A stretch of 64,000 nucleotides of DNA from Minisyncoccia bacterium (GTDB taxonomy: Bacteria; Patescibacteriota; Minisyncoccia; SW-4-49-11). Positions within the stretch are counted from its first letter, which is position 1. Every line of letters begins with the position of its first letter. The notes under the pieces were generated by a model. That model saw only the letters and a program-made list of their open reading frames with translations, did no database searches and was not told where the DNA came from. The stretch spans positions 28,494-92,493 of the forward strand of contig JBIKVS010000004.1 in NCBI GenBank assembly GCA_044356725.1, read 5' to 3'. Position numbers and translations under genes: made by a program. This document shows positions 1 to 38,563 of the stretch, piece after piece.

Positions 1-219
1 GACAGGTAGGGTTAATTTAATTAATAAACTAAACTCTTTTGCCAATCTAAATCGCCTAATCATACTCGGGATAAGAGTAATGATGAATAGAATAAGAGAT
101 AAAGTTCCCATATTCTTACCATACTCTACTCGCTCACTAATTGTAAGAAAGAAAAAAGGTAAGAATAGAACAGGACTACTCCAAGTAAGCCAGATAATGA
201 TTTTGTGTAGAATTTTCAT
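1..219 (-). CDS. Partial CDS; only the N-terminal ~73 codons are in the window (start codon at 217-219) and the gene continues past coordinate 1. The predicted product is a hydrophobic membrane protein.
   Basis: Open frame on the minus strand from an ATG (plus-strand 'cat' at 217-219) running off the window edge. Translation MKILHKIIIWLTWSSPVLFLPFFFLTISERVEYGKNMGTLSLILFIITLIP... is hydrophobic. It is absent from the ORF track because no stop codon lies in the window. Confidence 0.3.
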   Translation of the reverse strand, partial: MKILHKIIIWLTWSSPVLFLPFFFLTISERVEYGKNMGTLSLILFIITLIPSMIRRFRLAKEFSLLIKLTLPV

Positions 220-407
220 AGATTTAAGTTTATAAGTTTAGCTTTATTATAGCATATAGGGTAATAATTATAAATTATGAACGGTGAGTTATGAATGCCG
301 TAGGGGCGACCTTTCAGTCGCCTGTTATTCTACCCCAAACAGTATGAGATATAACATTGACAAAAAGAGGGAAATGTGCTATGGTTCAGAAGGTTTTTTA
401 CTAAACG

Positions 408-926
408 ATGTCCCCCTCCACCTCCTTTCTCGCTGCCCTCGACGCCGCCCTCTGCGCCGACCCCGCCCTTCGCGCCACTCGTGCCCGCGCAGCCATCACC
501 ACTCTCGCCGCCCCCGGTCAGTCCGATACCAGGAACTATATCACCCACAGCTCTTTAGTCGACAACTGCGCCACCCTTGCTGCCAACATTGCTGCACACG
601 TCGCCACTACCGGCAGAGAGCCCAACCTCACCTCCTGTGACACCCTCGCTGTCGCCATCAACTCTTCTCTTCTTGCTCTCCTTATCGACGGCGCAGCCAT
701 CACCACTCTCGCCGCCCTCGGTCAGTCCGATATCAGGAACTATATCACCCACAGCTCTTTAGTCGACAACTGCGCCACCCTTGCTGCCAACATTGCTGCA
801 CACGTCGCCACTACCGGCAGAGAGCCCAACCTCACCTCCTGTGACACCCTCGCTGTCGCCATCAACTCTTCTCTTCTTGCTCTCCTTACCGACGGCGCAC
901 CCCTCAGCGAATCTCATGAGACGTGA
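408..926 (+). CDS. Hypothetical Ala/Leu/Thr-rich protein encoded across a GC-rich tandem duplication; coding status uncertain.
   Basis: 172-aa ORF whose second half repeats the first (…AITTLAA(P/L)GQSD(T/I)RNYITHSSLVDNCATLAANIAAHVATTGREPNLTSCDTLAVAINSSLLALL…). All six frames are open here because of the high GC, so the open frame is weak evidence by itself. The ORF is followed by a terminator-like hairpin plus T-run at 940-976. Confidence 0.25.
   Translation: MSPSTSFLAALDAALCADPALRATRARAAITTLAAPGQSDTRNYITHSSLVDNCATLAANIAAHVATTGREPNLTSCDTLAVAINSSLLALLIDGAAITTLAALGQSDIRNYITHSSLVDNCATLAANIAAHVATTGREPNLTSCDTLAVAINSSLLALLTDGAPLSESHET
493..900. repeat. Tandem direct repeat: two 204-bp units (493-696 and 697-900), near-identical with two C>T differences near each unit's start. 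A partial third unit lies upstream.
   Basis: Direct reading: 'ccatcaccactctcgccgcc(c/t)cggtcagtccgata(c/t)caggaactatatcacccacag…cttatcgacggcgcag' occurs twice head-to-tail. The local composition is visibly GC-rich compared with the flanking AT-rich DNA. Confidence 0.9.
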
Positions 927-939
927 ATTCACTGTTTCT

Positions 940-976
940 CAACCCCCAGCCCCCGATTGTTTCGGAGGGCTGTTTT
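940..976 (+). terminator. Rho-independent terminator-like hairpin followed by a T-run.
   Basis: 'cagcccccgattgtttcggagggctg' forms an imperfect stem and is followed by 'ttttta'. Confidence 0.45.
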
Positions 977-997
977 TATAAAGTAGATAATATAGTT

Positions 998-1019
998 AAA
1001 TGTTCCACGTGGAACATTT
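998..1019. repeat. 22-bp perfect palindrome aaaTGTTCCACGTGGAACAttt (copy 1 of 3).
   Basis: Exact self-complementary sequence. The same 16-bp core recurs at 6290 and 7026. Confidence 0.9.
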
Positions 1020-1387
1020 TAGGGGAAGACAAACAAAAAAAGAGCTGAGCGCCCTTTTTAGAATGATATTTATAATTGTCTTTGCTTGCTTAAGCAGAAT
1101 AATATACTATAATATTTATATAAATTTGTCAAGAGTTGACATTTGTAACCAATAATTTGTCAAAATGTATATTGCAAAGACTTATATTATTCTATTATAT
1201 TTAATCTTAATCTAATCTATTGTCCTCCTCCGTCACCTACGGTGCCACCTCCTCCAAAGGAGGACAGTTAATTATATAATATTCTGTGTCTACCATAACG
1301 AGTATCTTATTCAGCACCTATATTTGCTTTTTTTCCTAATTTAATATACAATAATCCCATTAATAAACTCATTTATCTCCTAATTAT

Positions 1388-3196
1388 ATGAATTCACATA
1401 TCCGTAACCTTGCTATTATTGCTCACGTTGACCATGGTAAAACCACTTTGATGGATGCTATTTTGCATCAAACTCAGATTTTTAGAGAGAATCAGGCTGT
1501 TCAGGAGAGAGTGATGGATTCTATGGATTTGGAGCGAGAAAAAGGTATTACTATTAGGGCTAAGAATGCTTCTGTTACTTATAAAGACTATACTATTAAT
1601 TTGATTGACACTCCCGGGCATGCTGATTTTGGAGGAGAAGTAGAGCGAGTTCTTAAAATGGCTGACGGAGCTCTTTTATTGGTGGATTCTAAAGAGGGGC
1701 CAATGCCTCAAACTAAATTTGTACTTAAAAAAGCTTTAGCTTTAGGGCTTCGTGTAGTAGTGGTTATTAACAAAATTGACCGACCTGATGCTAATCCCGA
1801 TGCAGTGGTGGATAAGACTTTTGACTTATTCGTTACTCTGAATGCTAATGATAAGCAATTAGATTTCCCAATTGTGTATGCTTCGGCTATTAATGGTTCG
1901 GCTTCTTTGGAAACTGACCAGACTGGTAAGGATTTGACTGAACTATTCGAGGTTATTGTGAATGAAATACCAGCTCCGACCTCTCCTATTGAAGAGTCTT
2001 TTCGTATGCTGACTTTGAATTTGCAATTTGATAAATTCAAAGGTACTATGGCTGTCGGTAGAATTGATGCTGGTAAGATAGTGAAGGGTATGTCTGTGGT
2101 TAGAATAGACAAAGCAGGTAATCAGACTAAGAATAGTATCACTAGTTTGCTGAAATACAATGGAATGGAATTAGTGGAGGCTACTGAAATTGTAGCTGGA
2201 GATATTGCGGTGATTGCTGGTATTGCCGATATTGAAATCGGAGATACTATTGCAGATGCTCAAAATCCAGTTCAAATTGCCCCTGTAGAGGTGGAAAGCC
2301 CTACTTTGCAGATGATGTTTGCTATCAACGACAGTCCTTTTTCTGGGAAGGAAGGTAAATATTCTACTTCTCGTATGATCCGAGATAGATTATATAAAGA
2401 GCAAGAGACTAATATTAGTTTGAGAATTGAAGATACAGATAGCCCTGACAAATTCTTGGTAGCTGGCCGTGGGGAGTTGCATTTGGCTGTTTTGATTGAG
2501 ACTATGCGACGAGAGGGATATGAGTTTTCTGTTGGAAGGCCTCAAGTAATTCTCCGAGAGAATAATGGAGCTACAGAAGAGCCTTATGAATTATTGAGTC
2601 TAGATGTGCCTGAAGAGTATAGTGGTAAGATTATTGAAGCTGTAAATAAAAGGCAGGGAGAATTAGTGAATATGGAAATTAATGAGCATAATGAGTCTCA
2701 TATTGAATATAAAATTACTACTCAGAATTTGATTGGGCTAAGGAGTGTATTATTGACTTTATCTAAGGGAACTGTGATTATGAATAGTTCTTTCCTGGAA
2801 TATGGTCCAAGAATGTCTAATGGTAAAGGAAGAGCTACCGGGTCTATTGTGTCTCTGGAACTAGGTAAAATAACCAAATATGCTCTGGATGGAGCTTCTG
2901 ATCGAGGTGTGTTTTTTGTGTCTGATGGAACTGAAGTTTATCCTGGTATGGTCTTAGGAGAATCCAATCGGGAACAAGATGTGGAAATAAACCCCATTAA
3001 AGCTAAAAAATTGACCAATATGAGGGCTTCCGGCTCAGATGACGGTGTATTTATTGCCCCTCCAAAAGATATGTCTCTAGAGGCTAGTATTGAGTATTTG
3101 GCTGATGATGAATTGTTGGAAGTGACTCCACTTAGTCTTCGAATTCGCAAAAGAGTATTAGATTCCAATGAGCGAAAGAGATCTAATAGAGGGTAA
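1388..3196 (+). CDS. typA: Translational GTPase TypA/BipA.
   Basis: N-terminus [22 protein letters not shown] with G-domain motifs DTPGHADF and NKID, length about 600 aa. 'HVDHGKTTL' matches BipA rather than LepA. Confidence 0.9.
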
Positions 3197-3942
3197 ATTA
3201 AAAAGCCCCACAGTGTGAGGCTAGGGATGTAAATTTTAATTGAAGTCTATAATTATGCCGATACTGAATATTTCCAAGAGAATAAGAATTTAAGTATAAT
3301 ATGTTTACAAGAGTGACTTGGTAATGTAAACTCTAAAGTATCAGAATATCTATATTGTTCAGAATTTATAGTACTTAAAATCTCCTTTCTCAATATATTT
3401 AAATTTCCATGATACTTACCTCTTATTTTTTGTAGTAATTTAGGGTAGTTCGTATCAGACATTATTTCTGCCCAGTGGCACTTCTGCATTTTCAATTCAG
3501 GTTCTAGAAAAGAAAGAAAATGTATTACATTAACTCTCATGACAGGTCTTGAGTGAGTTTTCTATATTTATATACCATAAATTGTAGTAAAATTGCAAGT
3601 TTTTTGTATTCTGCTATTTCAAAAATATCAAATAATCTTATTAACTATTTACAAAGTCAAATATATATGATATATATTAAATGCTAAGCTATCTTTTTTC
3701 ATCATGTACCCTCGAACAATTTGGTTTTTTTTGTCTAATTTGCTTAACTTTTTGAGTGTAAAGATTGAACATACGTGTTATTTGATTGAGAATTTAGTCA
3801 AATATTCCCTCAAATTACCTCTTTTTTTGGCGGCTATACTACAGAATGGTAGTGTATTTATTTATCACAGAAAAGTAAGAGAAACATACACGAGCACGAG
3901 AACTGAAGCTAATTAATCAATATTTTATTTAAATTTCAAACC

Positions 3943-3977
3943 TCACCTCCTTGGAGTCATACTCCGGAGGTTTTTTG
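3943..3977 (+). terminator. Strong rho-independent terminator (nested hairpin plus T6) inside a gene-poor ~1-kb stretch.
   Basis: 'acctcc ttggagtcatactcc ggaggt' is followed by 'tttttt'. No convincing upstream CDS is present (the 70-aa ORF at 3704-3916 looks spurious). Confidence 0.5.
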
Positions 3978-4243
3978 TTTATAAATTTTATAATATGGAA
4001 GGATAAACATTTACCCCCTCCTAATATCTCTTTACAAGAGCTAATAGGAGGGACTTAAAGCTCCCTCCAACTACTTACGGCAGTTAGAAAAGAGGACAAA
4101 AATACTCCACCCCGTCTCCTCGCTATGTAAACATAACAAGAATCCACCCCTCAAGAGGGGAATTTAAAAACAAGATCATATCAAGGATATGCGACAAAAA
4201 GTCGCCCTTGCAAAATTATCAACTCACTATTCACTACTCACAA

Positions 4244-5230
4244 TTAAATCAATCTATACAAAGCTTCAGCAAGTTTAAGTGGATCATGTCGGATTAAAGT
4301 CCTTCTAAGAGAATCTTTTTTATTTGGGTTGATAAATATACCATCTGCAATTAAATCAGCTCCTATAAGGGTAGTTTTACCAAGCTTATTAGCTTTACTT
4401 GATTTGACAACAGGTTCTCCCTCCTCTTGATACTTTGCTACCAATTTTGGATCAGGTTGAGTGGTATTATATAAAGCTATATCTATAACTTCAGTCCCCA
4501 TAAACTTATTCAGTTGTCTAATATGTTCCTCTACTGACCATTGTTTATGTCCAGCTACTTTAGACATCAGATTTACATTATAAATAATTTGAGCTTGGGT
4601 TTTTTCTAAGGCTTGACTCATTCCTGGAACTATCAAATTAGGTAGTAAACTCCCGTAAAAAAGACCAGGTCCGATGACAACACTATCTGCTTCCATAATA
4701 GCTTCTTTGGCTCTGGGATTGAGTGTGGTTTTGGGAATTAACTTTAATTCTTTGACAGGATGCTGTAAATATTCTGTAGAATCGTGGATTCTAGCTTCTC
4801 CCAATAGTTCAGTTCCGTTGTCAAGAGTAATAGATAGATTAATACTATCTGTGGTGACGGGTATAACCTCTCCTTTGATGGATAAAATATCACCAGCAGT
4901 TTTGACAGCTTCTTCAAAATTACCAGTAATTTTTTCTAGAGCTGATAAAAATAAATTTCCAAAATTATGTCCAGTCAATTCTCCACAGTCAAATCTATAG
5001 TTGAATAAATGTCTTAGAATTTCAGGTGATTCAGCAAGAGCCACTAGACATTGTCTAATATCTCCTGGTGGTAAAACTCCCAATTCATCTCTTAGCTTAC
5101 CAGTAGAACCACCATTATCCACCATATTAACTATAGCTTTAAGATTTAGATTGCTAAATAATTTTAATCCAGATAAAACAGTGAAAGAGCCAGTTCCTCC
5201 ACCAATCACCACTATATTTTTATTAGACAT
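4244..5230 (-). CDS. yvcK: YvcK/CofD-like (UPF0052) gluconeogenesis-factor family protein.
   Basis: N-terminal IVVIGGGTGSFTVLSGLK and NMVDNGGSTGKLRDELGVLPPGDIRQC, as in YvcK/2-phospho-L-lactate-transferase-like proteins. The ORF-track start at 5236 is TTG; the ATG at 5230 (MSNKN) is preferred. Confidence 0.8.
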   Translation of the reverse strand: MSNKNIVVIGGGTGSFTVLSGLKLFSNLNLKAIVNMVDNGGSTGKLRDELGVLPPGDIRQCLVALAESPEILRHLFNYRFDCGELTGHNFGNLFLSALEKITGNFEEAVKTAGDILSIKGEVIPVTTDSINLSITLDNGTELLGEARIHDSTEYLQHPVKELKLIPKTTLNPRAKEAIMEADSVVIGPGLFYGSLLPNLIVPGMSQALEKTQAQIIYNVNLMSKVAGHKQWSVEEHIRQLNKFMGTEVIDIALYNTTQPDPKLVAKYQEEGEPVVKSSKANKLGKTTLIGADLIADGIFINPNKKDSLRRTLIRHDPLKLAEALYRLI

Positions 5231-5397
5231 AAACAAAATTTAATAATAATTGTGGATAACTTGGGTATAAGTCGGGGTTTCTCACAAGTTATCCACAAAA
5301 TGGAATATGATATGATTATAATAAATACATATACATATATTAAATATATATTATTCTTTAGCTGATAGCAAGATTAGATTATTGAAAAGTAAATGAA

Positions 5398-6660
5398 ATG
5401 CAGAATAAAATTAAATTATTTATATATACTAGTATAGGCATAAGTTTGCCATTTTTGATAAGGACAACCTTATTTGAATATAATATTAGAAATATTAGTT
5501 CTCCGTATGCAACTATATATTTACATAGTCTAGATATAATCTTTCTTATAGCTATATTCTTTTTTTGGTGGAAAACTAAAAATCTACCATTTAGTGATAT
5601 AAAAAATGTGGATAAGTTATGGATAACTTTATTTTCTCTTATATTTTTACACTTGTTTTGGGTAAAATATCCTCTTTTGACTTGGGTTTCTGGAATGAGA
5701 TTTTATTTAGGACTAGCCTTGATTTGGTATATAAGTAGATTTCAATATTTAGCCAGAGACCTGAAATACACTATAAACGGACTCTTTATTGGGATGTTAG
5801 CTCAAGCTATTATAGTTATAGCTCAATTTGGATTACAAAAAAATCTTGGATTACCTCTTGTGATAGAACCGGTTTTATCTAATAGTATTGCAGGTGTGGC
5901 TAAAGTTGATATTTTTAACAATACCTTTATAAGGGGTTATGGAACTTTTCCACATCCTAATATATTGGGTTATGTTGGTATATTAGCTTTAATTTTGTTA
6001 TATGCTCAAAAACTAGGCAGAAAACTATCTATAATAATTTACTCGGCTACTATTATTATTGCAGGACTTATAGATCATTATATCTTAACCTCAATACAAG
6101 CTTTTGGGATATCTATTTTGACAGCAACATATCTTTTATACGCTAGATTAGATGGATTTGGTAAGGTTTTTCGTAAATTTATAATTCTTATTCTACACCT
6201 TTTAATCTTACTTAGTTTTTCTAAAACGGCTATAGCATTGCTTTTAGCGTTAGACTTAGTATATTTGACAACATCGACTCAAAAGTCAATGTTCCACGTG
6301 GAACAATTTCAAAGAATATTAAAATCCCTGCCAAGATTATTCGTCAACGCAATGTCCGTATCGGGAATCATATTCTTATGGATTATTCCATATGCACAAA
6401 TTATAGACACCATAACCAAAAGGTTTCTATATGTACAGGATGCTTTTCAAATGATAGGTTCTAATTTATTCTTTGGAGTTGGGTTGGGGCAGTATGTTAT
6501 AAATTTATCTGATAATCGTGAATTATGGCAATATGAGCCGGTGCATAATATACTTTTATTACTATGGAGCGAGCTTGGCTTTATTGGACTTAGTCTTATA
6601 ATAGTAATTTTTTGTGTGGAATGTTACACTTATGTATATGGATACAAAAAACAAAGGTGA
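5398..6660 (+). CDS. O-antigen ligase (Wzy_C)-like polytopic membrane protein.
   Basis: Many TM helices. C-terminal motif …YEPVHNILLLLWSELGFIGLSLIIV (H..N.yL..l.E.G..G) is typical of the O-antigen ligase/Wzy_C family. The CACGTG palindrome at 6290-6305 lies inside the CDS. Confidence 0.6.
   Translation: MQNKIKLFIYTSIGISLPFLIRTTLFEYNIRNISSPYATIYLHSLDIIFLIAIFFFWWKTKNLPFSDIKNVDKLWITLFSLIFLHLFWVKYPLLTWVSGMRFYLGLALIWYISRFQYLARDLKYTINGLFIGMLAQAIIVIAQFGLQKNLGLPLVIEPVLSNSIAGVAKVDIFNNTFIRGYGTFPHPNILGYVGILALILLYAQKLGRKLSIIIYSATIIIAGLIDHYILTSIQAFGISILTATYLLYARLDGFGKVFRKFIILILHLLILLSFSKTAIALLLALDLVYLTTSTQKSMFHVEQFQRILKSLPRLFVNAMSVSGIIFLWIIPYAQIIDTITKRFLYVQDAFQMIGSNLFFGVGLGQYVINLSDNRELWQYEPVHNILLLLWSELGFIGLSLIIVIFCVECYTYVYGYKKQR
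6290..6305. repeat. 16-bp perfect palindrome TGTTCCACGTGGAACA (copy 2 of 3), inside the ligase-like CDS.
   Basis: Exact match to the core at 1001-1016 and 7027-7044. Confidence 0.9.
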
Positions 6661-7024
6661 TTTGGGTGAAAGATTGGCGGTAAAATTATTACTATCCAAA
6701 GGGTTTGAAATTATAGACCAAAATGTAAGATTGGGTAAGTTCTCAGAACTAGACATTATTGCTATTAAGGATAAAGTTTTACACATCATAGAAGTCAAAA
6801 CTGTGTATAAATGTGGAAAACTTGGGGATAACTTAGATTTTCCTATATATAATATCACTCCAAGAAAGATCAAACATCTCAAACTAGGTGCTCAAATGTA
6901 TGTGCAGAAGCGGAAATTACAAGATATGGATATGACAATAGATGCTATTGCCTGTATTGTGGATAATTGTCATAAGAAAAGTTGGATTAAGCTTTATCCT
7001 AATATTCTAGAGGGGCTTGACTAA
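6638..7024 (+). CDS. yraN: YraN-family (UPF0102) predicted endonuclease.
   Basis: KGDLGERLAVKLLLSKGFEIIDQNVR…ELDIIAIKDKVLHIIEVKT matches the YraN signature. The start is taken at MDTKNKGD; it overlaps the end of the upstream gene. Confidence 0.65.
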   Translation: MDTKNKGDLGERLAVKLLLSKGFEIIDQNVRLGKFSELDIIAIKDKVLHIIEVKTVYKCGKLGDNLDFPIYNITPRKIKHLKLGAQMYVQKRKLQDMDMTIDAIACIVDNCHKKSWIKLYPNILEGLD

Positions 7025-7025
7025 A

Positions 7026-7045
7026 TTGTTCCACGTGGAACAATG
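7026..7045. repeat. 20-bp perfect palindrome atTGTTCCACGTGGAACAat (copy 3 of 3), immediately after the yraN stop codon.
   Basis: Exact palindrome. It sits 736 bp downstream of copy 2. Confidence 0.9.
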
Positions 7046-7143
7046 GCGAAATATTGAAAAATAAAAGTTTTTACAGTACAATTATATTTATCATTTAATT
7101 CAAAGATCAGAATTATTGAACAGTATAAATAATAGATTTTAAT

Positions 7144-8277
7144 ATGGACAAAATAGAAAAGATTTTTACAGAAGCTATGGCTCTTGGAGATATTAAGGTA
7201 AATGGAGATAGAGTTTGGGACTTTCAGGTTAAAAATCCAGCTATTTGGCAAAGAATGCTGAAAGATGGTTCAATGGGTGTCGGTGAGGGGTATGTAGAAG
7301 GTTGGTGGGATGTAGAGGCTTTGGATGAATTCTTATTTAGAATAAGAAAATATAAAGTTTTGGATGCTTTATCTGATGTTTTTGGGGGTTCTTGGCAAAA
7401 TCGACTATATGTTTTACAAAGTAAGGTTTTGAATTTACAAGATAAAGAAAAAAGTAAGAGAGTAGCTAAAGAGCATTATGATATAGGGAATGATTTGTAT
7501 ACTAGAATGCTTGATCCTTATATGCAATATACCTGTGCTTATTGGAAAAATGCTGATAATTTAAATCAAGCTCAAGAGAATAAATTAGATTTGATTTGCC
7601 GTAAATTAAAGTTAGAAAAAGGAATGAGAGTACTAGACATTGGTTGTGGTTGGGGCGGTTTATTGAAGTTTGCTTCAGAGAGATATGGTGTTATTGGAGT
7701 TGGGATTACTATTTCACAAGAGCAACAAAAATTAGCTCAAGATACTGTTAAGGAGCTTCCAATAGAAATTGTTTTAGCTGATTATAGAGAATATTCATCA
7801 GAGCCTTTTGATAGGGTGGTTTCAGTTGGGATGTTAGAGCATGTAGGGTATAAAAATTATAAAGAGTATATGGAGGCTGTGAATAAGAATCTAAAAGATG
7901 ATGGTTTAGCTCTTTTACATACTATTGGAGATAGTGTTTCTACTACCACTACTGAACCTTGGATAGACAAATATATATTCCCAGGAGGTCAAATACCATC
8001 TTTGCAACAATTATCTAAATCTTGGGAAAGCATATTAACTATACAAGATTTGCATAATATTGGACCAGATTATGACCTTACTCTGATGGCTTGGTATGAG
8101 AATTTCACACAATCTTGGCCAGAGTTAAAAGATAAATACGGAGAAGAGTTTTATAGACTATGGGAATATTATCTTTTGAGTTGCGCTGGTAGTTTTAGGT
8201 CTGGATATCTACAGTTGTGGCAAATGGTATTCACTAAGCAATATAATCGACTAGAAAGATACGAAGCTGAGAGATAG
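7144..8277 (+). CDS. cfa: Cyclopropane-fatty-acyl-phospholipid synthase.
   Basis: SAM-dependent methyltransferase motif VLDIGCGWGGLLKFASERYG, plus YTCAYW and VGMLEHVGYKNYKEY; length about 377 aa. Confidence 0.85.
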   Translation: MDKIEKIFTEAMALGDIKVNGDRVWDFQVKNPAIWQRMLKDGSMGVGEGYVEGWWDVEALDEFLFRIRKYKVLDALSDVFGGSWQNRLYVLQSKVLNLQDKEKSKRVAKEHYDIGNDLYTRMLDPYMQYTCAYWKNADNLNQAQENKLDLICRKLKLEKGMRVLDIGCGWGGLLKFASERYGVIGVGITISQEQQKLAQDTVKELPIEIVLADYREYSSEPFDRVVSVGMLEHVGYKNYKEYMEAVNKNLKDDGLALLHTIGDSVSTTTTEPWIDKYIFPGGQIPSLQQLSKSWESILTIQDLHNIGPDYDLTLMAWYENFTQSWPELKDKYGEEFYRLWEYYLLSCAGSFRSGYLQLWQMVFTKQYNRLERYEAER

Positions 8278-8304
8278 AAACTTTAATGGTGAATTACTCT
8301 CTTC

Positions 8305-8333
8305 TTGTCAAAATTCTAAAAATAAGATATAAT
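8305..8333 (+). promoter_or_regulatory. Sigma70-like promoter upstream of tRNA-Leu(TAA).
   Basis: TTGTCA, a 17-bp spacer, then TATAAT, ending 13 bp before the tRNA 5' end. Confidence 0.45.
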
Positions 8334-8346
8334 GATTTCACTATCA

Positions 8347-8431
8347 GCTAGGGTGGCGGAATGGTAGACGCAACGGACTTAAAATCCGTCGGTGATTAAA
8401 CACTGTGAGGGTTCAAGTCCCTCTCCTAGTA
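8347..8431 (+). tRNA. tRNA-Leu (anticodon TAA), class II with a long variable arm; CCA not encoded.
   Basis: Hand-folded: acceptor gctaggg/tcctagt (two G-U pairs), D-arm gcg-gaatggtaga-cgc, anticodon stem acgga/tccgt with loop cTTAAaa, long variable arm, T-arm gaggg-ttcaagt-ccctc, discriminator A. Confidence 0.8.
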
Positions 8432-8579
8432 CAAATTATAGAAACAAAAAAGCAATAGTCAGTTTTGACTATTGCTCAGGACTTGAAGGTCGGAGCGATG
8501 TGTGAGTTTGTGCGAAGCACAAGGCGAACACCGCGAGACGGGGTCGCGAGAATTTTCCGTCAGGAAAATTACTTGTGAC

Positions 8580-8602
8580 CAAGTCCCTCTCCTAGTACAA
8601 AT
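8580..8602 (+). repeat. 23-nt direct repeat of the tRNA-Leu(TAA) 3' end (caagtccctctcctagtacaaat), about 150 bp downstream of the tRNA; att-like.
   Basis: Exact duplicate of 8414-8436. The intervening 8437-8579 contains two perfect hairpins (gcaatagtc-agtttt-gactattgc and aattttcc-gtca-ggaaaatt) and a GC-rich segment. Confidence 0.85.
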
Positions 8603-8610
8603 AGAGAAGC

Positions 8611-8635
8611 AGTCCGTTTGGACTGTTTTTTAATT
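8611..8635 (+). terminator. Rho-independent terminator following the second copy of the tRNA 3' end.
   Basis: 'gcagtccgtttggactg' followed by 'tttttt'. Confidence 0.6.
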
Positions 8636-8639
8636 CCCC

Positions 8640-8966
8640 TCTTGAAGGGTGTCCCAAAGGGGCGGGGTGGATGGATTTATAAAACACAGGTGACATAAGG
8701 TCGCCCCTACGGGATGAGTGTAAAGCAAATGTCATTGCCTGCTTTAGGCAGAGATGTCTCCATTGAGCGACCGAAAATACTGTCCTCCCTTGGGGGAGGT
8801 GTCACGAAGTGACGGAGGAGGACAAAAAGCTCAAGTTTCAAAATACTTCCACCCCGTCCAGCGAAGCTGTCCACCCCCTCAATTTATCTCCATCCCTACG
8901 GGAGGTAAACCCGTAGGCAGAGAGGGGAATTTAAGGCAACTGAAAGATCGTTCTCTCCTAGTATAT
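8640..8966. repeat. Block of mosaic GC-rich intergenic repeat modules; these hairpin-forming modules are shared with at least eight other intergenic sites in the window.
   Basis: Contains modules that recur elsewhere in the window: 'aggtcgcccctacg' (family A); 'ctgtcctcccttgggggaggtgtcacgaagtgacggaggaggaca' (family C, compare 29519 and 32158); 'ccaccccgtc…gaggggaatttaa' (compare 4095-4165); and 'tctctcctagtata' (a tRNA-3'-end-like fragment). Confidence 0.7.
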
Positions 8967-8976
8967 CTTTAAAATA

Positions 8977-9066
8977 TAGACAAAAGTTTCAAAATATGGT
9001 ATGTTTCTGATTGTACGGACTCTAGAGCAATTTAGAGTCAAATTTTCTCTACCCTGAGGAGGGGTT
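8977..9066 (+). promoter_or_regulatory. Cassette promoter and 5' leader, copy 1: TAGACA, 17-bp spacer, TATGTT, then a ~55-nt leader with a conserved hairpin and a GAGGAGG ribosome-binding site.
   Basis: About 90% identical to 9657-9747. A related core (TAGACAAAAGT…AAATATG.TAT.GT) appears at 15642. Confidence 0.55.
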
Positions 9067-9516
9067 ATGTCTAACTCTCAATCGGATATAGATCCATTTG
9101 AAGAAGCACAATTTTTCATTCCCAACTCATCATACTTTAGTAGATTGTATTGTTTGGATTATATACTTACAAAACTTGATAGGGAACATAGAAGAATGGC
9201 TTTAAATATTTCTGATGACTCTAAACTTGCATTTGAAGGTGCTAATATACAACCTCCTGAGTATATTTATATTAAATTCATTGAAGAGTGGGAGTTAAGT
9301 GATAGTGATGTCCTGCACTTTGATTATCAGAGAAGAGGAGGAATTATCCCCAAATGGGGTCCTGGTGAAAAGTCGAAAGAATCACTTTTGCACATTGGGG
9401 CAATTATAAGGTTAAATCTTTTATATCAAATTAGAATGATAGGGCCAATAGATCCTAGCCCAAATGACTGTGAGTGGAGAAGAGTAGGAAAGATTGAAGT
9501 GGTAAAGCAAAGTTAA
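9067..9516 (+). CDS. Hypothetical protein, cassette ORF 1 (149 aa); no family recognised.
   Basis: ORF with a strong ribosome-binding site (gaggagg, 5 nt, ATG), enclosed by the shared promoter/leader and the shared terminator. Confidence 0.55.
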   Translation: MSNSQSDIDPFEEAQFFIPNSSYFSRLYCLDYILTKLDREHRRMALNISDDSKLAFEGANIQPPEYIYIKFIEEWELSDSDVLHFDYQRRGGIIPKWGPGEKSKESLLHIGAIIRLNLLYQIRMIGPIDPSPNDCEWRRVGKIEVVKQS

Positions 9517-9531
9517 TAAGTGTTTTCATTT

Positions 9532-9557
9532 CCCCCGCGTGCGATGCGGGGGTTTTT
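9532..9557 (+). terminator. Cassette terminator, copy 1 (cccccgcgtgcgatgcggggg + TTTTT).
   Basis: Perfect 9-bp GC stem with a T-run. It is identical to the element at 10122-10147, including the downstream 'attttcgactatttat'. Confidence 0.8.
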
Positions 9558-9656
9558 ATTTTCGACTATTTATTCACTCTCTCCACCACTTCCTAAACTT
9601 AAAGTATAGGAGGAACTTAAAGCCCTACGACAAGAATAGATTATCTCTTCGCAATA

Positions 9657-9747
9657 TTGACAAAAGTTTCAAAATATGATATGTTTCTGTTTGTCCAGGC
9701 TCTAAAGTAATTTAGAGTCAAATTTTCTCTACCCTGAGGAGGGTTTT
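9657..9747 (+). promoter_or_regulatory. Cassette promoter and 5' leader, copy 2 (TTGACA, 17-bp spacer, TATGTT, conserved leader, GAGGAGG ribosome-binding site).
   Basis: Near-identical to 8977-9066. Confidence 0.55.
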
Positions 9748-10110
9748 ATGTTGAATGTTCATTCGGCTGCATCAGCTGCAGAATTTTTTGTAGTAGATAG
9801 AATAACTGGGAAAGCTAGAATATATGACTTATCTTGTAAAGAGACTAAGGAAACAAGAATATTTTGGCTTCAAACTAGTCCTCTGAAAACAGAGTATATA
9901 GTTCTATTTTGCGATGTAACTTTAGACAATGGCAGAACAATTTCAGGTGGTGGTGAAATATCTATTATAAAAGAAGAGTTTGATAAACTCGAAATTAATG
10001 ATAATGTAGAAATAGGATTTGAGATACGTCAGAATTTCGGAGAACCTAGGAAATTATACCCACTTACATTAAAGTTTATAGATAGAGAAGGAGCTCTCGA
10101 TCTTTCTTGA
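9748..10110 (+). CDS. Hypothetical protein, cassette ORF 2 (120 aa); unrelated in sequence to ORF 1.
   Basis: Same arrangement as cassette 1 (promoter-leader, ORF, terminator), but with a different ORF. Confidence 0.55.
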   Translation: MLNVHSAASAAEFFVVDRITGKARIYDLSCKETKETRIFWLQTSPLKTEYIVLFCDVTLDNGRTISGGGEISIIKEEFDKLEINDNVEIGFEIRQNFGEPRKLYPLTLKFIDREGALDLS

Positions 10111-32451: not shown

Positions 32452-34362
32452 TTAGGTAGAAGTAGATGATGGAGTGGTCTCAGGAGTGGGAGTGTCGAGT
32501 TTATAATCATCTTTCATCTCCTCCCATAATGCCTTGACAAAAGATAAGTCTGGTTGCCTTAGAGTACTTAAATCTAATAGTCCAAAATGTAAATGTTCTT
32601 TTGCTGTTTCTAGGTTAATCCCAGATACTAATATAAGATTTTGAAGTTCAGGGTGTCTTAAGATCTCTTCTACTACTGCTTTTTGTTCAAGATAGGCAGT
32701 ATCTTTGGTAGAAGGAATAGACCGGTCTGTATTATTAAAGTTTATTGAGTTACGGAATAATCTTCTAGCACTACTAAGAGCTGTTTTAAGAGCTAATGAT
32801 TTTGACTTTTTTGGATTAACAGATATAGTACTTTCATAATAAGCCTTTACACAATCTAAATAATCTCCACCAGCTTGTTTTGCTGCCATAGCTCTAATAT
32901 AGTGTGGTACCGGAGGACTAGCGAATCCAAATAATTCTTGAGATGCTTTATCTTGATAATACATTGCTCCGCCTTCTTGAAATAAAACAGATCTATCACC
33001 TCCAATTTGGTCGGGATGAGTATAGAGAGGTAGTCCTATTTCCGCTGTATTTTCATCTTGTAAAACATGGACTATTTCATGTACTGTACCCTTAGTTAGG
33101 ACATCTATAATAGACCTATTTTTAATTGGTATAAATATAGTTTTACTTTTAGGGTGGGTTTCAAACACAGATTGGTTGGGCTTTATATAACATCTCCATT
33201 TATTGTCAGGAGGTTTAATATTATTATCTATTTGCTCTTGATCAGAAGGATGTTCACTTAATAATCCATACTCTGATAAAATTCTATCTAAATATATTTT
33301 TATTTGCTCGGGCTCAACACTTTCGAACTCCATTTTATTTATATCTAATCCTTGTTCTGCTAAAATTGAGGCTTTTTCTTGGTTTAATTTAATATGTTCT
33401 TCAGCTATTTCATCAGCTTGTTGGAATAGTCTATCATCGACTTGGTCATAATTTCCATCTGCATTCATTTTGCCAACTCCATATCTAAATTTATCTAATT
33501 TATACTTTGATTTGTGAGATTTTAAATCTGATTCAGCATCTAAAATAGCTTTATCTTCTAACGTTACAGCTAATAATACATTCACTTTTTTAATTATATG
33601 TTTGAGGCTATATAATTTTGAATGGATTAGAGCTAGACTTTCTGTTGAAGACTCCTGCTCCCCATTTGTAACAGCCGCTTCTTCTTGGAATAGGGTTGAC
33701 CTTGATTGTTCGAGTCTTGACCTTAGTTCTCTTAAGAATTCAATTTTTTTAATTAACTCGTCAGGTTTTTTGATAAACATTAATTTCTCGGGATTATCCA
33801 AACCTTCCACATCTAAACTACCACTCTCAGTGATGTGAGGTGATAATTGCTCTAACATTGTTTTGGTAAAATAATTAAGACTTTTTTTACCTAACAAACT
33901 TAAGGATTTAGAATCTAGTTTTCTTAAAACATCAATATTTTCTCTAATATCTATTGCAAAATTACTATTCTTAGAATCTTCGTCTGAAGATAATCTATCT
34001 AAAATAACTTTAGTTTTATCGGTAGAATTATCTAATAAATAAGCTGATAATATGGATTCTTGTAATACATTTTGTCCCTCAACGGTATCGAAATATTCAG
34101 GATACAATGTTTTTACATTATACTCTATTGAATATGCTTGAGCTAATTCATTTACAAAGGGGTTTGTAAATTCTATTAAACTATTTTTTTCATCTTCTGT
34201 TAATACTTCTTTTTCCCTTTCTCCAGACAAATACTTTAGAATTTCGTTTAAAAGTTTCTCTGCAGAGTAGGAAGGCCTTTCTGGATATAAGGATCTTCTT
34301 TCAGCAGTATTTTCTAAAGGTTTTGGTGTAGTTTCAAAAGACATATTAGTTTTTAGATTCAA
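32452..34362 (-). CDS. DUF1704/QEGLA-motif (bacterial MATCAP-like) HExxH zincin protein with a long N-terminal extension.
   Basis: 636 aa. HEIVH zinc-binding motif followed by FQEGGAMYYQDK (a QEGLA-like motif) in the C-terminal half. The family is known to co-occur with RimK-like ATP-grasp ligases. Confidence 0.55.
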   Translation of the reverse strand: MNLKTNMSFETTPKPLENTAERRSLYPERPSYSAEKLLNEILKYLSGEREKEVLTEDEKNSLIEFTNPFVNELAQAYSIEYNVKTLYPEYFDTVEGQNVLQESILSAYLLDNSTDKTKVILDRLSSDEDSKNSNFAIDIRENIDVLRKLDSKSLSLLGKKSLNYFTKTMLEQLSPHITESGSLDVEGLDNPEKLMFIKKPDELIKKIEFLRELRSRLEQSRSTLFQEEAAVTNGEQESSTESLALIHSKLYSLKHIIKKVNVLLAVTLEDKAILDAESDLKSHKSKYKLDKFRYGVGKMNADGNYDQVDDRLFQQADEIAEEHIKLNQEKASILAEQGLDINKMEFESVEPEQIKIYLDRILSEYGLLSEHPSDQEQIDNNIKPPDNKWRCYIKPNQSVFETHPKSKTIFIPIKNRSIIDVLTKGTVHEIVHVLQDENTAEIGLPLYTHPDQIGGDRSVLFQEGGAMYYQDKASQELFGFASPPVPHYIRAMAAKQAGGDYLDCVKAYYESTISVNPKKSKSLALKTALSSARRLFRNSINFNNTDRSIPSTKDTAYLEQKAVVEEILRHPELQNLILVSGINLETAKEHLHFGLLDLSTLRQPDLSFVKALWEEMKDDYKLDTPTPETTPSSTST

Positions 34363-35206
34363 TTTCTTGTATTATATATTTAGTGATAACTTCAAATAAA
34401 TTAATACCAGTAGTTGCCATAAATCCTTTAAATTGAGGAGCAGCATTTACCTCCATAATATAGTATTTTTTAGTTTCTATATCCTGAATTATATCCACTC
34501 CTGCCATATCTAAATCTAGAATTGCCACTGATTTTATAGCCATATTTAACGCTTCATCAGGGAGAGTGGCTATTTCTGAAGTCCCACCAAGGGATATATT
34601 AGATCTAAACTCACCTTCTTCAGTAGGGCTTCTCTTGATTACCCCAATTACTTTGTTTTTTAATATCCAAACTCTATAGTCACCATCATTTGGAATCATA
34701 GGTTGAGTTATTAGAGGAATTTCAGATTTTTGTACGGTATCCAAGATTGATTCTATAGATGAATGTTTCAGTATCTCCCTCCCTTTTTTCCCATTGATAG
34801 GCTTTGTTATAAACGATTGCTTATATTGAGATGTGAAATACCTTATTTTATCTACACTTTTTGATATGAGTGATGGTATTATAGATATGTTATTATTGCT
34901 TAAATTATATATTTCAAAGGTTTTAGAATCAATATAATTTGGCTTATGTCCATAAAATATAAATGGAATATTATTATTAATAAGATATTGCTTTAAGATA
35001 GGGCTGATATGCTTGTGTTTTTCTGTTAATCCTACAAGTACAAATTTAAAATCTTCAAGTAGTTTATCATCTATAAGTATCTTATTATTCAATAAAGCTA
35101 CTTCAGTAAACTTAATATGGTGAAACGTATATCCATTATACTCAACAAGCTTTTTAAATTCTATCTGAAATGACTCTGGAAAGTTAATAAATAAAATATT
35201 TCTCAT
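34346..35206 (-). CDS. RimK-like ATP-grasp peptide ligase, paralog A.
   Basis: ATP-grasp motifs ITKPINGKKGREI, DYRVWILKNKVIGVIKR, FRSNISLGGTSE and GVDIIQDIETKKYYIMEVNAAPQFKGF. Confidence 0.75.
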   Translation of the reverse strand: MRNILFINFPESFQIEFKKLVEYNGYTFHHIKFTEVALLNNKILIDDKLLEDFKFVLVGLTEKHKHISPILKQYLINNNIPFIFYGHKPNYIDSKTFEIYNLSNNNISIIPSLISKSVDKIRYFTSQYKQSFITKPINGKKGREILKHSSIESILDTVQKSEIPLITQPMIPNDGDYRVWILKNKVIGVIKRSPTEEGEFRSNISLGGTSEIATLPDEALNMAIKSVAILDLDMAGVDIIQDIETKKYYIMEVNAAPQFKGFMATTGINLFEVITKYIIQEIESKN

Positions 35207-35210
35207 ACAC

Positions 35211-36068
35211 CTACTCTTTAGTTGATATTAAATACTCCAGTAATAAATCTTCAACTTTAATATTAAATGTTTTATTAAAACCATAGAACTGAGGGTTTGC
35301 ATTTATTTCAATAACATAAGGTTTATTATCAGAATCAAATAAGATATCTATTCCTGCATATTCTAAAGATAATGTATTAGCTACATCTAGAGCTAGGATT
35401 TCTATTTCAGGGGATAGTGTAAATTTTTCACCAATACCTCCTTGAGATATGTTGGTGACAATAGAATCTTTATGAGGTTTATTTCTTTTCATAGCTCCAA
35501 TAACTTTTTTCCCAATTATTAAAACTCTAATATCCCATTCAATTGGAATATACTTTTGAAATAATATATTGTATGGTTTGTAAGTTTTATAATATTCATC
35601 TAATTTTGATTGAGAATCTATAATTTGAATCCCATTACCAAAGGAACCAGAGCTAGGCTTGACTAAAAATCTATTATCTTGAAAGTAGTTACAAATATCT
35701 TTATAGTTTAAAATATCAAATGACCATATAGTAGGGATTAAAGGTATGCTCGGATTGTTTTGAGATAAATATGAGTACTGTATAGTTTTATCATACTTAT
35801 GAAATTTTAATAAAAATTCTTTATTTAATTGTTTGGTTGAAGATGGTAGTTGATTAACATAAAAACTTTGTACTGGAGAACAATCAAAGTCTCTATGAAT
35901 TGCAAAATCTATATTATTTAGGCTTTTTTTAATATTATGAAGTTCATGTACAATTTCCTTAGTATGAATTACTTCTATATTAATATAACATTTTTGAGCA
36001 GCTTCTATGAGTTTGCTAATTGTGTTTTTATCAGAGTTATGACGGGTAGTAAATAATATTGTTTTCAT
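35211..36068 (-). CDS. RimK-like ATP-grasp peptide ligase, paralog B.
   Basis: FLVKPSSGSFGNGIQII, WDIRVLIIGKKVIGAMKR, NISQGGIGEKF and GIDILFDSDNKPYVIEINANPQFYGF. The start is set at the internal MKTILF (this parallels paralog A's MRNILF); the ORF-track start is 36107. Confidence 0.7.
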   Translation of the reverse strand: MKTILFTTRHNSDKNTISKLIEAAQKCYINIEVIHTKEIVHELHNIKKSLNNIDFAIHRDFDCSPVQSFYVNQLPSSTKQLNKEFLLKFHKYDKTIQYSYLSQNNPSIPLIPTIWSFDILNYKDICNYFQDNRFLVKPSSGSFGNGIQIIDSQSKLDEYYKTYKPYNILFQKYIPIEWDIRVLIIGKKVIGAMKRNKPHKDSIVTNISQGGIGEKFTLSPEIEILALDVANTLSLEYAGIDILFDSDNKPYVIEINANPQFYGFNKTFNIKVEDLLLEYLISTKE

Positions 36069-36141
36069 ATTAAGATAAAAGTATATAGACAGGGTTATTA
36101 CTATCAAGTATAATAATTATTATAACATATAATGTATTTTT

Positions 36142-37110
36142 ATGAAATTAGGTATTTTTTTGACCCCAATTGTTGAAGAGGCAGAGAATAGAGGTATAAG
36201 TATAAAACTATTCCCAGAGATAAGTAAAACTTTTGCTATTTTACAATATGGTAAGCATGAGGAATATATTCATAATACTTTAACAAATCATATAGGAGCT
36301 TCTACAACCAGGATATTAAAAAACAAGTATTTTCAATCAGTACTATTATCTGAAAAAGGATATATTACTCCCAAGACTCAAATAGTATATTTAGAGAAGT
36401 CCAAGAGAGATGAATTTATCCAAAACTTTAATCAATTTCCCTGCGTGGTTAAGCCATTAGATAACTATGGGGGTAGAGGAATTACGGTAAATATTACAAA
36501 TCATACTGATTTAGAAAAAGCAATTGAACTTGCTTGTGATAATAGTAAAAAGTATAAAGATAAATGTATAGTACAAGAAATGGTGAGTGGTAAAGAGGAG
36601 TATAGATTATTAGTGATTGGGAATAAAGAGGTGTTTTTTGTAAAAAGAACTCCATTTAGAGTTATTGGAGATGGTCAACATTCAATTCAGGAATTGATTC
36701 AAATATATAATGATGATGTTGTAAAGATTGATAAGACGAGATATGTCCGTATAGGAGACAGTATAATAAACATATTAAAAGAACAATCTTTAACATTAGA
36801 TTATATACCTAAAGAGCAGGAAATAATACAATTAAGTTATAAAGCTAACTCACATGATGGTGGTTCATCTGAAGAAATGACTGACTTTTTGCCAGATGTA
36901 TTAAAGCAGTTTGCTATTCAATTGTCTTTAGATTTTAATTTACCAATTGTAGGCATTGATATTATAACTAATGATATTAATAATCCTAATCAATGTATTT
37001 TAGAGTTAAATCTTACTCCAGGCTTAAATATACATGTAGCTCCAACCTTTGGAAAGCCAACTAAGCCTCAAAAAGCTATTATTGATCTATTGTTCCCAGA
37101 AACCATTTAA
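36142..37110 (+). CDS. ATP-grasp peptide ligase, paralog C (cyanophycin-synthetase N-terminal-like / RimK-like).
   Basis: CVVKPLDNYGGRGITVNI, EYRLLVIGNKEVFFVKRTPFRVIGDGQHSIQELI and IVGIDIITNDINNPNQCILELNLTPGL. Confidence 0.7.
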   Translation: MKLGIFLTPIVEEAENRGISIKLFPEISKTFAILQYGKHEEYIHNTLTNHIGASTTRILKNKYFQSVLLSEKGYITPKTQIVYLEKSKRDEFIQNFNQFPCVVKPLDNYGGRGITVNITNHTDLEKAIELACDNSKKYKDKCIVQEMVSGKEEYRLLVIGNKEVFFVKRTPFRVIGDGQHSIQELIQIYNDDVVKIDKTRYVRIGDSIINILKEQSLTLDYIPKEQEIIQLSYKANSHDGGSSEEMTDFLPDVLKQFAIQLSLDFNLPIVGIDIITNDINNPNQCILELNLTPGLNIHVAPTFGKPTKPQKAIIDLLFPETI

Positions 37111-37126
37111 GTTATTACCAATAAAT

Positions 37127-38560
37127 TTAACTTTCTTTTCTTGGGTCTATAATAAATTTTTTAAGGTCATTTTTCCCTAATAAAAATTGATATTTAAGAT
37201 GTGATCTTCTAACTATAGAGCAAGTAATATTAGTTACTTCATCGCCAACTTTGACTGGTATTTTAACAAATGGCCTGACTGTATAACCATTTCCTGCTTT
37301 AATTATAGCTACTTTTCTCAGTAAATGAAATTCAGGTTTTTCTTTTAATTCTAAGTTTATTTTATCGGTTAACTTATTTAGTGCATTATATTTTATCTCC
37401 TCTGGTATATCTAAAGCCCTAAATTCTTTTAACACATCTCCATAACCAAGTTTAATCAAAAGATCCTCATCGATACTGGAGGAGTCTGCCCCTGTATCTA
37501 CCTTAGCCAGTATTGTCTCTTTTTGATTATCTTTGCCAAAGAGGGTAATCTCTTCAATTAAGCCTATCACTTGTCGTCCGGTGATTTCCTCAATTTCTTC
37601 TTCAATTTCTCCTCCGAATAGGTCTTTTGCTAGTCTGATGGCTCTCTTGATTGTCTTAACTTTAAGCCCTTTGACCTTTTGTAATCTTTCTTTGAGTGGG
37701 GCTAAATTGGCAATTTGAATAGCAAGTCCTGGTCGGGCATTGGCTTCCAAGACTACTGGTCCAGCATCGCGGTCTATGGCAATATCTACTCCTGTAAATC
37801 CTAAATTAGTCACATCAGCAGTACGAATAGCTATTTCTAAAATTGTATTCCAATAGGGTATTCTAATTCCAGCTAAATTGGTTTTGGTACCTGGTATGGT
37901 GTCTATGAACTTCTCTCGCATAATAGCATTGGTAGTAACTCCAGTGGCCATATCTATCCCAACACCAATTCCTCCTTGATGTAGATTAGCTTTGCCATCG
38001 GATTCTTTGGTCGGAATTCTAATCATTGCCATTACGGGAATACGATTGAATACAATTACCCGAATATCAGGTATCCCTTTATAGGCTAAATGTTTGAAGG
38101 ATTTATTTAGTTTAATTCGCTCTTCAAAAAAGGCTATATCAGGGCTATTGGTACGGGAATATGTCCCGTCAAGAATATTGCTAATATGATTATGTATCAT
38201 TGTCTCACTAAGTTTAACTCCTTTGGTTTTGACCCATTGTCTTTCTCCATCGGCAGTTTTCTTTTTATGTTCTCCAAAAATCACGACAATTCCTTCCCCT
38301 CCAAATCCAGAAGTAGGCTTCAACACAAAGCTTTTTGGTAATTTAGTATAGTCAAAGTTATTTAGCTTTTCATAAGACCTTACGGAGGCTATGAGTTTAG
38401 GAGTAGGTATATTATTTTGTTGTAAAACTTTTTTGAATTTGATTTTATTGTCTACTAATTTGACCCATTTACGGTAGTTATAGGGCTTGATATAAGAAAG
38501 GTTGCGGGCATTCATCCCGAGTATTTTTTGACTAAATACGAATGCTTCCAGCCAATTCAT
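37127..38560 (-). CDS. Alpha-L-glutamate-ligase-like ATP-grasp enzyme fused to a C-terminal retropepsin-like (DTGA) aspartic peptidase domain.
   Basis: N-terminal ILGMNARNLSYIKPYN… then VLKPTSGFGGEGIVVIFG, IRVIVFNRIPVMAMIRIP, NLHQGGIGVGID and GVDIAIDRDAGPVVLEANARPGL. C-terminal KVDTGADSSSID. Confidence 0.7.
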   Translation of the reverse strand: MNWLEAFVFSQKILGMNARNLSYIKPYNYRKWVKLVDNKIKFKKVLQQNNIPTPKLIASVRSYEKLNNFDYTKLPKSFVLKPTSGFGGEGIVVIFGEHKKKTADGERQWVKTKGVKLSETMIHNHISNILDGTYSRTNSPDIAFFEERIKLNKSFKHLAYKGIPDIRVIVFNRIPVMAMIRIPTKESDGKANLHQGGIGVGIDMATGVTTNAIMREKFIDTIPGTKTNLAGIRIPYWNTILEIAIRTADVTNLGFTGVDIAIDRDAGPVVLEANARPGLAIQIANLAPLKERLQKVKGLKVKTIKRAIRLAKDLFGGEIEEEIEEITGRQVIGLIEEITLFGKDNQKETILAKVDTGADSSSIDEDLLIKLGYGDVLKEFRALDIPEEIKYNALNKLTDKINLELKEKPEFHLLRKVAIIKAGNGYTVRPFVKIPVKVGDEVTNITCSIVRRSHLKYQFLLGKNDLKKFIIDPRKES

Positions 38561-38563
38561 AGC

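Follow-up and report, generated by a model that had tools for sequence, protein, structure and literature searches.

A stretch of 64,000 nucleotides from a Minisyncoccia bacterium (assembly GCA_044356725.1, contig JBIKVS010000004.1, positions 28,494 to 92,493; "the window" below refers to this whole stretch) carries three exact copies of the 16-bp palindrome TGTTCCACGTGGAACA, located at 1001-1016, 6290-6305 and 7027-7042. Judged by their sequence, the three palindromes are very probably chromosomal parS sites, i.e., the loading sites of the ParABS partition system, in the chromosome of a member of the Paceibacteria within the Candidate Phyla Radiation (CPR, Patescibacteria). The 16-mer is identical at 16 of 16 bases to parS2 and parS3 of Pseudomonas aeruginosa PAO1, which are experimentally validated, perfectly palindromic parS sites (PMC4368675 Table 1). 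It is also the parS sequence of P. putida, lies one base from the Myxococcus xanthus consensus TGTTCCACGTGGAACG, and is a variant of the general, near-universal chromosomal parS consensus, TGTTNCACGTGAAACA (PMC7022226 Table 1). In the searchable literature, the exact string TGTTCCACGTGGAACA occurs only in papers on ParB and parS.

parS is a well-known type of element, found here in a little-studied lineage, and not a new kind of element. With this annotation, the repeated palindrome is accounted for by a known kind of centromere-like element, and a Paceibacteria lineage is seen to use the near-universal parS word and to keep it under strong selection. An earlier note on this DNA had offered a partition-type site as one of several options, next to the target of another regulator, a restriction-modification (R-M) site, and a recombination or uptake sequence, and its interpretation is therefore partly supported: the partition-type option agrees with the identity to validated parS, and the proposal of a dimeric DNA-binding-protein site instead of an RNA hairpin holds as well.

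The palindromes and their rarity

The first site, parS-1, is a 22-bp perfect palindrome (AAATGTTCCACGTGGAACATTT, 998..1019, core 1001-1016) in intergenic DNA, 370 bp upstream of typA. The second, parS-2, consists of the 16-bp core (6290..6305) within a coding sequence (CDS) for a Wzy_C-like protein, where it encodes the residues M-F-H-V-E-Q, and the third, parS-3, is a 20-bp perfect palindrome (ATTGTTCCACGTGGAACAAT, 7025..7044, core 7027-7042), the first base of which is the base after the yraN stop codon (TAA, 7022-7024). All three match the 16-mer exactly, and they are spaced by 5.3 kb and 0.74 kb. The earlier note had described the first copy as a 22-bp palindrome at 998-1019 and the second as 16 bp long, both of which are confirmed; its 20-bp palindrome directly after the yraN stop also exists, but the coordinates 7026-7045 were off by one. 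No functional significance is apparent in its remark that yraN is "bracketed" by copies 2 and 3; the sites simply form one cluster.

Such a number of copies is far beyond chance, as had been claimed. When up to three mismatches are allowed, 0.12 matches to TGTTCCACGTGGAACA are expected, and the observed count was reached in none of 100 dinucleotide-preserving shuffles; a fourth match, at 42003, has three mismatches and is at chance level. The relaxed parS pattern GTTNCACGTGNAAC, allowing at most one mismatch, finds the same three sites and no others in the window (0.04 expected); written as a search pattern, the parS word is TGTTYCACGTGRAACA, with up to 1-2 mismatches. The hexamer CACGTG occurs in the window only within the three palindromes, and no further TGTTCCACGTGGAACA site was found in the remaining 57 kb, in 10 kb upstream or 6 kb downstream of the window, or, in relatives, from -24 to -10 kb. 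The sites thus show the clustering characteristic of chromosomal parS, with few copies, all within 6 kb, at a frequency far above chance.

The palindromes might instead be taken for hairpins or terminators, for R-M or methylation targets, for DNA-uptake sequences, or for the ends of mobile elements, all of which we regard as extremely improbable. A terminator scan weakly flags site 2, on the minus strand and with a 6-bp stem; however, the palindrome has no loop, site 2 is intragenic, and the U-tract context and the flanks are not conserved, so that an intrinsic terminator or RNA hairpin, flagged only weakly and in antisense, was rejected. CACGTG is a type II restriction site and is present only in the three copies, but two findings speak against an R-M site: the conserved stretch is 16 bp long and not 6, and neither ACGT (observed/expected, O/E, 0.68, which is explained by CpG depletion) nor CACGTG is specifically avoided beyond the general depletion of CpG. 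For an uptake sequence, three clustered copies in about 100 kb are the opposite of what is expected, and R-M target and uptake sequence were both rejected on the conservation of 16-22 bp and the clustering of the three copies. A miniature inverted-repeat transposable element or the terminal repeat of an insertion sequence was likewise rejected, as similarity among the copies ends after about 20-23 nt and their positions are fixed at orthologous sites across the species compared. A recombination site, another option of the earlier note, is without support because the copies share nothing beyond about 20 nt. As a separate observation on the whole window, several 4-bp palindromes are under-represented relative to a Markov expectation (GCGC 0.44, GATC 0.45, GGCC 0.52, CATG 0.54), which hints at restriction-avoidance pressure in this CPR genome.

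The palindromes also leave traces in gene prediction. Two spurious open reading frames (ORFs) at the palindromes, 1000-1155 on the plus strand ("MFHVEHF...") and 7021-7251 on the minus strand ("...VPRGTI"), are annotation artefacts created by the parS sequence. Annotation therefore calls for caution here: ORF 1000-1155 and the invariant FHVEQ in the Wzy-like protein stem from the DNA site and are not protein features.

Conservation and genomic associations

Relatives of the window were identified by comparing its TypA with species-representative genomes, which yielded 11 other species with TypA sequences 81-98 % identical; the next-best matches, from other phyla, reach about 52 % identity. The related genomes are variously annotated as Candidatus Paceibacteria, Parcubacteria or Minisyncoccia (Patescibacteria, CPR). 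The locus covers sites 1, 2 and 3 in 10, 10 and 9 of these species, respectively, and every covering locus carries a site at the orthologous position, i.e., upstream of typA, within the Wzy-like gene, and after the yraN stop. At the parS-1 position the site is present in 10 of 10 species, eight of them with the exact sequence, and at the parS-3 position in 9 of 9, three exact and six with 1-2 transitions. In anchored alignments, mean column identity of the 16-mer at sites 1, 2 and 3 is 0.99, 0.98 and 0.95, compared to 0.53, 0.72 and 0.72 in the flanks (30 bases on each side), and pairwise differences amount to 0.02-0.08 in the core vs. 0.39-0.64 in the flanks. The upstream flank of site 1 and the sequence downstream of site 3 cannot be aligned between species at all, and at site 2 the block TTGTTCCACGTGGAACAATTTCAAAA is constant, including its synonymous positions, within a rapidly diverging coding region. 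As a control for specificity, 69 typA loci of other phyla, 1.04 Mb in total, were scanned; an exact site is absent from all of them, and allowing up to two mismatches yields just one.

CpG dinucleotides are much rarer in this genome than expected (O/E 0.47), and the central CG of the sites is nonetheless kept, therefore against the mutational current. Where copies do deviate, the changes are CG-to-TG/CA transitions within the central hexamer CACGTG (giving CATGTG, CACATG or CATATG) or replacements of C by T at positions 5-6; one of the latter yields TGTTTCAC, the other canonical parS half-site. The sole other deviation is a G-to-A change at position 11 in the related species L012. These deviations are exactly those that the CpG mutational current would produce. 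The comparison thus shows strong purifying selection on the sites at three syntenic positions across species.

The same motif accompanies partition genes in other genomes. A metagenome scan for the 16-mer with the A/T flanks typical of the lineage (AWT-16mer-AWT) returned at least 120 stretches, and since none of the 120 listed overlaps with the window lineage, they constitute an independent sample. A Soj-like ParA and/or Spo0J-like ParB is encoded in 24 of the 120 listed stretches (20 %), with the nearest motif, among the matches listed, at 0-572 bp and, in the median, about 105 bp from the parA or parB gene; in the 69 control loci there is no ParB and one ParA. The ParA and ParB query sequences served as homology probes only, and these assignments are homology-based, with E-values down to 1e-111 for the derived hidden Markov model (HMM). 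At least two sites are present in 50 of the 120 listed stretches. The motif is thus associated with parAB outside the lineage of the window. Among these stretches, some low-GC contigs (34-39 %), which are probably not CPR, carry the motif directly after an ORF of about 625 aa (L198 7887, L149 5621, L132 4057, L115 2315). In size, this ORF would fit mnmG/gidA, a classic origin-proximal gene.

In L222, a more distant relative of the window lineage (IF-2 58 % identical), an exact TGTTCCACGTGGAACA lies just after rbfA and a copy with one mismatch just after uvrD. They lie 5 and 9 kb away from rpmH, and neither occupies a position orthologous to one of the sites in the window. This bears on the possibility that the palindromes merely resemble parS and are operators of another dimeric DNA-binding protein, such as a transcription factor acting locally or a Noc- or KorB-type paralogue of ParB, controlling typA, the wzy-like gene, yraN or the gene for a cyclopropane-fatty-acid-synthase-like methyltransferase (cfa). 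Sites 1 and 3 are indeed intergenic, upstream of typA and cfa, and no ParB gene was located in the 93 kb that could be surveyed. However, a local regulator, as entertained in the earlier note, is very unlikely, because all 16 positions match validated parS, site 2 lies deep within a CDS, the L222 sites are non-orthologous, and the motif stands beside parAB in unrelated genomes; nor is a regulator gene linked to the sites in any species.

Origin position, DnaA boxes and the search for ParB

The position of the sites relative to the replication origin can be approached via GC skew, calculated at four-fold degenerate sites on the coding strand, separately for genes on either strand. Right of the cluster, skew is about -0.03 for plus-strand genes and about -0.28 for minus-strand genes; on the left, relatives show about -0.1 and -0.4, respectively. 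The sign of the replication component is therefore the same on both sides, which implies that the plus strand is the leading strand from about -23 to +69 kb and that the origin is situated beyond this span, to the left. What looks like a flip of the skew in L001 was produced by a spurious ORF called within a C-rich tandem repeat. In L222, the minus-strand block yidC-rnpA-rpmH and its neighbours have a leading-type skew of +0.13, and to the right of rpmH plus-strand genes have +0.11 and minus-strand genes -0.22. This flip places an origin of L222 at the rpmH divergence point and demonstrates that a switch can be detected by this method.

In the window lineage, the distance to this point can be estimated by synteny. 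L220 shares its gene order, Wzy-Wzy-VirB4/TraC/KsgA-DUF4446-infB-rbfA-uvrD-LOG, with the window lineage, and its yidC precedes infB by 10 kb; L223 has the order rpmH-rnpA-yidC-Polysacc_synt-GT2; and infB of the window lineage lies 12.8 kb upstream of typA in contig coordinates. On the basis of this synteny and the infB distance, rpmH-rnpA-yidC should be located about 23-27 kb upstream of typA, and the parS cluster probably lies on the leading-strand side of the origin, about 25-35 kb from rpmH-rnpA-yidC. A search with YidC did not return the window lineage's own YidC among its matches, and in the neighbourhoods of other Patescibacteria YidC genes rpmH-rnpA-yidC is present, with no dnaA, parAB or parS within 10 kb. 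parS sites of this kind could serve as landmarks for orienting fragmented metagenome-assembled genomes relative to the origin.

Between parS-1 and parS-2/3 lies a cluster of DnaA boxes (4979..6966), which holds 13 matches to TTATCCACA at up to one mismatch within 2 kb. The window contains 41 such matches compared to 23 expected, with a background of about 0.45 per kb, and four of its five perfect boxes fall into the cluster: 5251-5259(-), 5289-5297(+), 5607-5615(-) and 6958-6966(-). Further boxes are found at 5618 and as a triplet at 6802-6831. The inverted perfect boxes at 5251 and 5289, about 29 bp apart, are situated in the divergent intergenic region between cofD and the wzy-like gene, where an invariant extended -10 element, TATGATATGATTATAAT, comes just after them; further boxes lie inside the wzy-like gene and yraN. 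The cluster is positionally conserved in the nine related species compared, including the most distant one, L015.

These boxes raise the possibility that the parS sites and the DnaA-box cluster embedded between them mark oriC itself, which we consider quite improbable. Thirteen boxes within 2 kb, two perfect inverted boxes beside an AT-rich stretch, and the conservation of a cluster flanked by parS sites in the relatives compared would all suit an origin. However, the strand-corrected four-fold skew does not switch at the cluster but keeps the same sign on both sides (plus-strand genes near 0, minus-strand genes -0.3 to -0.4), the same method finds a clear flip at rpmH in L222, the genes upstream are oriented toward the locus, there is no dnaA close by, and the conserved AT-rich element looks like a promoter of the extended -10 type. 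oriC at this position was rejected on the strand-corrected skew. Because the skew does not switch there, the boxes are read, from their sequence and arrangement, as a putative non-oriC DnaA-box cluster or a DnaA-controlled divergent promoter. It is also conceivable, although unlikely, that parS sites and DnaA boxes form a composite chromosome-organising locus away from the par operon and the skew-defined origin, in which, e.g., ParB spreading would be coupled to DnaA titration or regulation, or that the lineage lacks a canonical ParB and another protein reads the sites.

Several observations weigh against the identification of the palindromes as parS. No ParB, ParA or DnaA was found in the window (about 60 ORFs searched with Pfam or NCBIfam), in the 10 kb upstream or 6 kb downstream of it, or from -24 to -10 kb in three relatives reached via their IF-2 homologues, and a local ParB HMM, built from the metagenome matches, detected none in any of the fetched loci of the lineage. 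The span free of par genes is about -24 to +69 kb (93 kb), and since no ParB gene lies in the reachable DNA, we can only infer a cognate ParB in the lineage. The literature searched contains no description of ParABS or parS in CPR bacteria (Patescibacteria, Parcubacteria, Saccharibacteria). The origin proximity in the window's own lineage is inferred from synteny, and in L220 (11650-17094) the plus-strand genes rbfA, DHH, uvrD and LOG have an anomalous skew of -0.44 to -0.69, opposite to that of the orthologous genes in L222 and the window lineage, which suggests that the direction of replication through the rbfA-LOG block differs between genera. Finally, all three sites are degraded in L012 (9768, 14352, 15092), with 1-2 substitutions each in the central hexamer, and the related L013 (9754) and L212 (21474) share CACATG at site 1; the degraded hexamers in this clade read CACATG, CATATG and CATGTA, and could mean that CpG has decayed where selection was relaxed or that the specificity of ParB has changed.

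Together, the missing ParB and the possibly relaxed selection in the L012 clade would suit relic parS sites, retained by inertia in a lineage that has lost ParB or maintained by another factor, e.g., for SMC loading or nucleoid organisation. This scenario seems very improbable to us. Inertia cannot explain the sites, because the 16-mer is perfectly conserved in most species while its neighbours diverge to the point of unalignable intergenic DNA and CpG is depleted, and the arms of the sites are intact even in L012. Chromosomal parS sites are often many kilobases away from parB, and for this reason the absence of ParB near the palindromes weakens their assignment only slightly.

If the palindromes function as parS, established ParB biology predicts the following sequence of events. 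A ParB dimer would recognise each 16-bp palindrome via its helix-turn-helix, bind CTP, close into a clamp, and slide onto the flanking DNA. The three sites would thereby nucleate one partition complex over the typA-cofD-wzy-yraN-cfa region of about 6-10 kb. ParA would move such complexes apart after replication, and the complex would also load the SMC condensin.

Surrounding sequence and known systems

Surrounding the sites are typA, a minus-strand gene similar to cofD/yvcK, the gene for the Wzy_C-like membrane protein, yraN (UPF0102), cfa, tRNA-Leu, mutS and mutL. The assignments proposed in the earlier note hold for TypA/BipA (1388-3196), the O-antigen-ligase-like Wzy_C protein (5398-6660), whose Pfam match is weak (30.1 bits vs. 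a cut-off of 31.7), and UPF0102/YraN (6614-7024). About 20 nt downstream of parS-1, a terminator-like hairpin with a T-run (1037..1062; AAAAGGAGCTGAGCGCTCCTTTT in most species) is recognisable by alignment and terminator scan in most of 11 aligned sequences, though not in L015. It is likely a terminator, possibly bidirectional, that shields typA from the upstream transcription unit, and it is not part of parS.

Upstream of parS-1, positions 280-980 form a GC-rich (about 60 %), strongly C-skewed island in a genome of 33 % GC. A tandem repeat (487-906; 204-bp unit x2.1, 97-99 % identity) lies within the island, whose end, shortly ahead of parS-1, is a terminator-like hairpin, and several assemblies appear to break near it. 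A 172-aa ORF called in the island has no Pfam match, the island itself has no Rfam match, and an Rfam search over 1-10000 returned only tRNA-Leu. Short GC-rich, hairpin-forming repeats (e.g., CCCCTCAAGAGGGG, CCTCCTCCAAAGGAGGA) are scattered over intergenic DNA in both orientations, with pairs at 295-313 / 8697-8715, 1220-1268 / 8779-8825 and 4145-4172 / 8624-8651; related copies occur upstream of parS-1 in L012 and L016. These may be terminators or elements similar to repetitive extragenic palindromes (REP-like).

Further along the window, a second copy of the 3' end of tRNA-Leu(taa) lies 166 bp downstream of the first (8414-8436 = 8580-8602, 100 %), in a manner that resembles an att-site scar, and just beyond it a 105-nt leader is repeated (8962-9066 and 9642-9746, 88 %) before two small ORFs, 9067-9516 and 9748-10110, neither of which matches a family. 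Since the segment around 8347-8602 / 8962-10110 is absent between cfa and mutS in L010 and L012, it is probably a small integrated element or a remnant of one. At 34346-39205, four RimK-like or sugar-transfer ATP-grasp genes lie beside a 7TM_transglut membrane protein and a Zn-protease-like domain, a concentration of ATP-grasp genes that is unusual for a reduced CPR genome.

Compared with known systems, the sites resemble those of P. aeruginosa in their identical 16-bp sequence and in the presence of several clustered copies. In P. aeruginosa, four parS sites are found close to oriC, any one of which is sufficient for segregation (PMC4368675; PMC7022226). In contrast to this GC-rich proteobacterium, the palindromes described here reside in a Patescibacteria genome of 33 % GC, are seen away from parAB and dnaA, with ParB binding predicted from the sequence, and have A/T flanks that extend the palindrome to 20-22 bp.

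The parS sites of Bacillus subtilis (TGTTNCACGTGAAACA), at which the CTP-dependent clamp of Spo0J/ParB is loaded and SMC is recruited, belong to the same consensus family, with the half-sites TGTTCCAC and TGTTTCAC, and the related locus L013 has a hybrid of the two, TGTTTCACGTGGAACA. In both cases, sites may lie within genes, and they are few. Those of B. subtilis are concentrated near the origin, and in the lineage of the window the distance to the origin is probably about 25-35 kb. One of the B. subtilis sites is located within spo0J itself. In that species, 8 of 10 parS sites fall into the ori domain (PMC7022226), whereas here no par genes occur within 93 kb.

The DnaA boxes, in turn, resemble the DnaA-box clusters (DBCs) of B. 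subtilis and datA of Escherichia coli in that conserved consensus boxes occur outside the skew-defined origin, partly in a promoter and partly within genes. Clusters of this type, which do not act as oriC, are known from both species, and promoters regulated by DnaA are known as well. Unlike those systems, the cluster in the window is interleaved with parS sites, an arrangement of which we know of no description, and this co-located, conserved DnaA-box cluster is the only part of the locus that might lead to something new.

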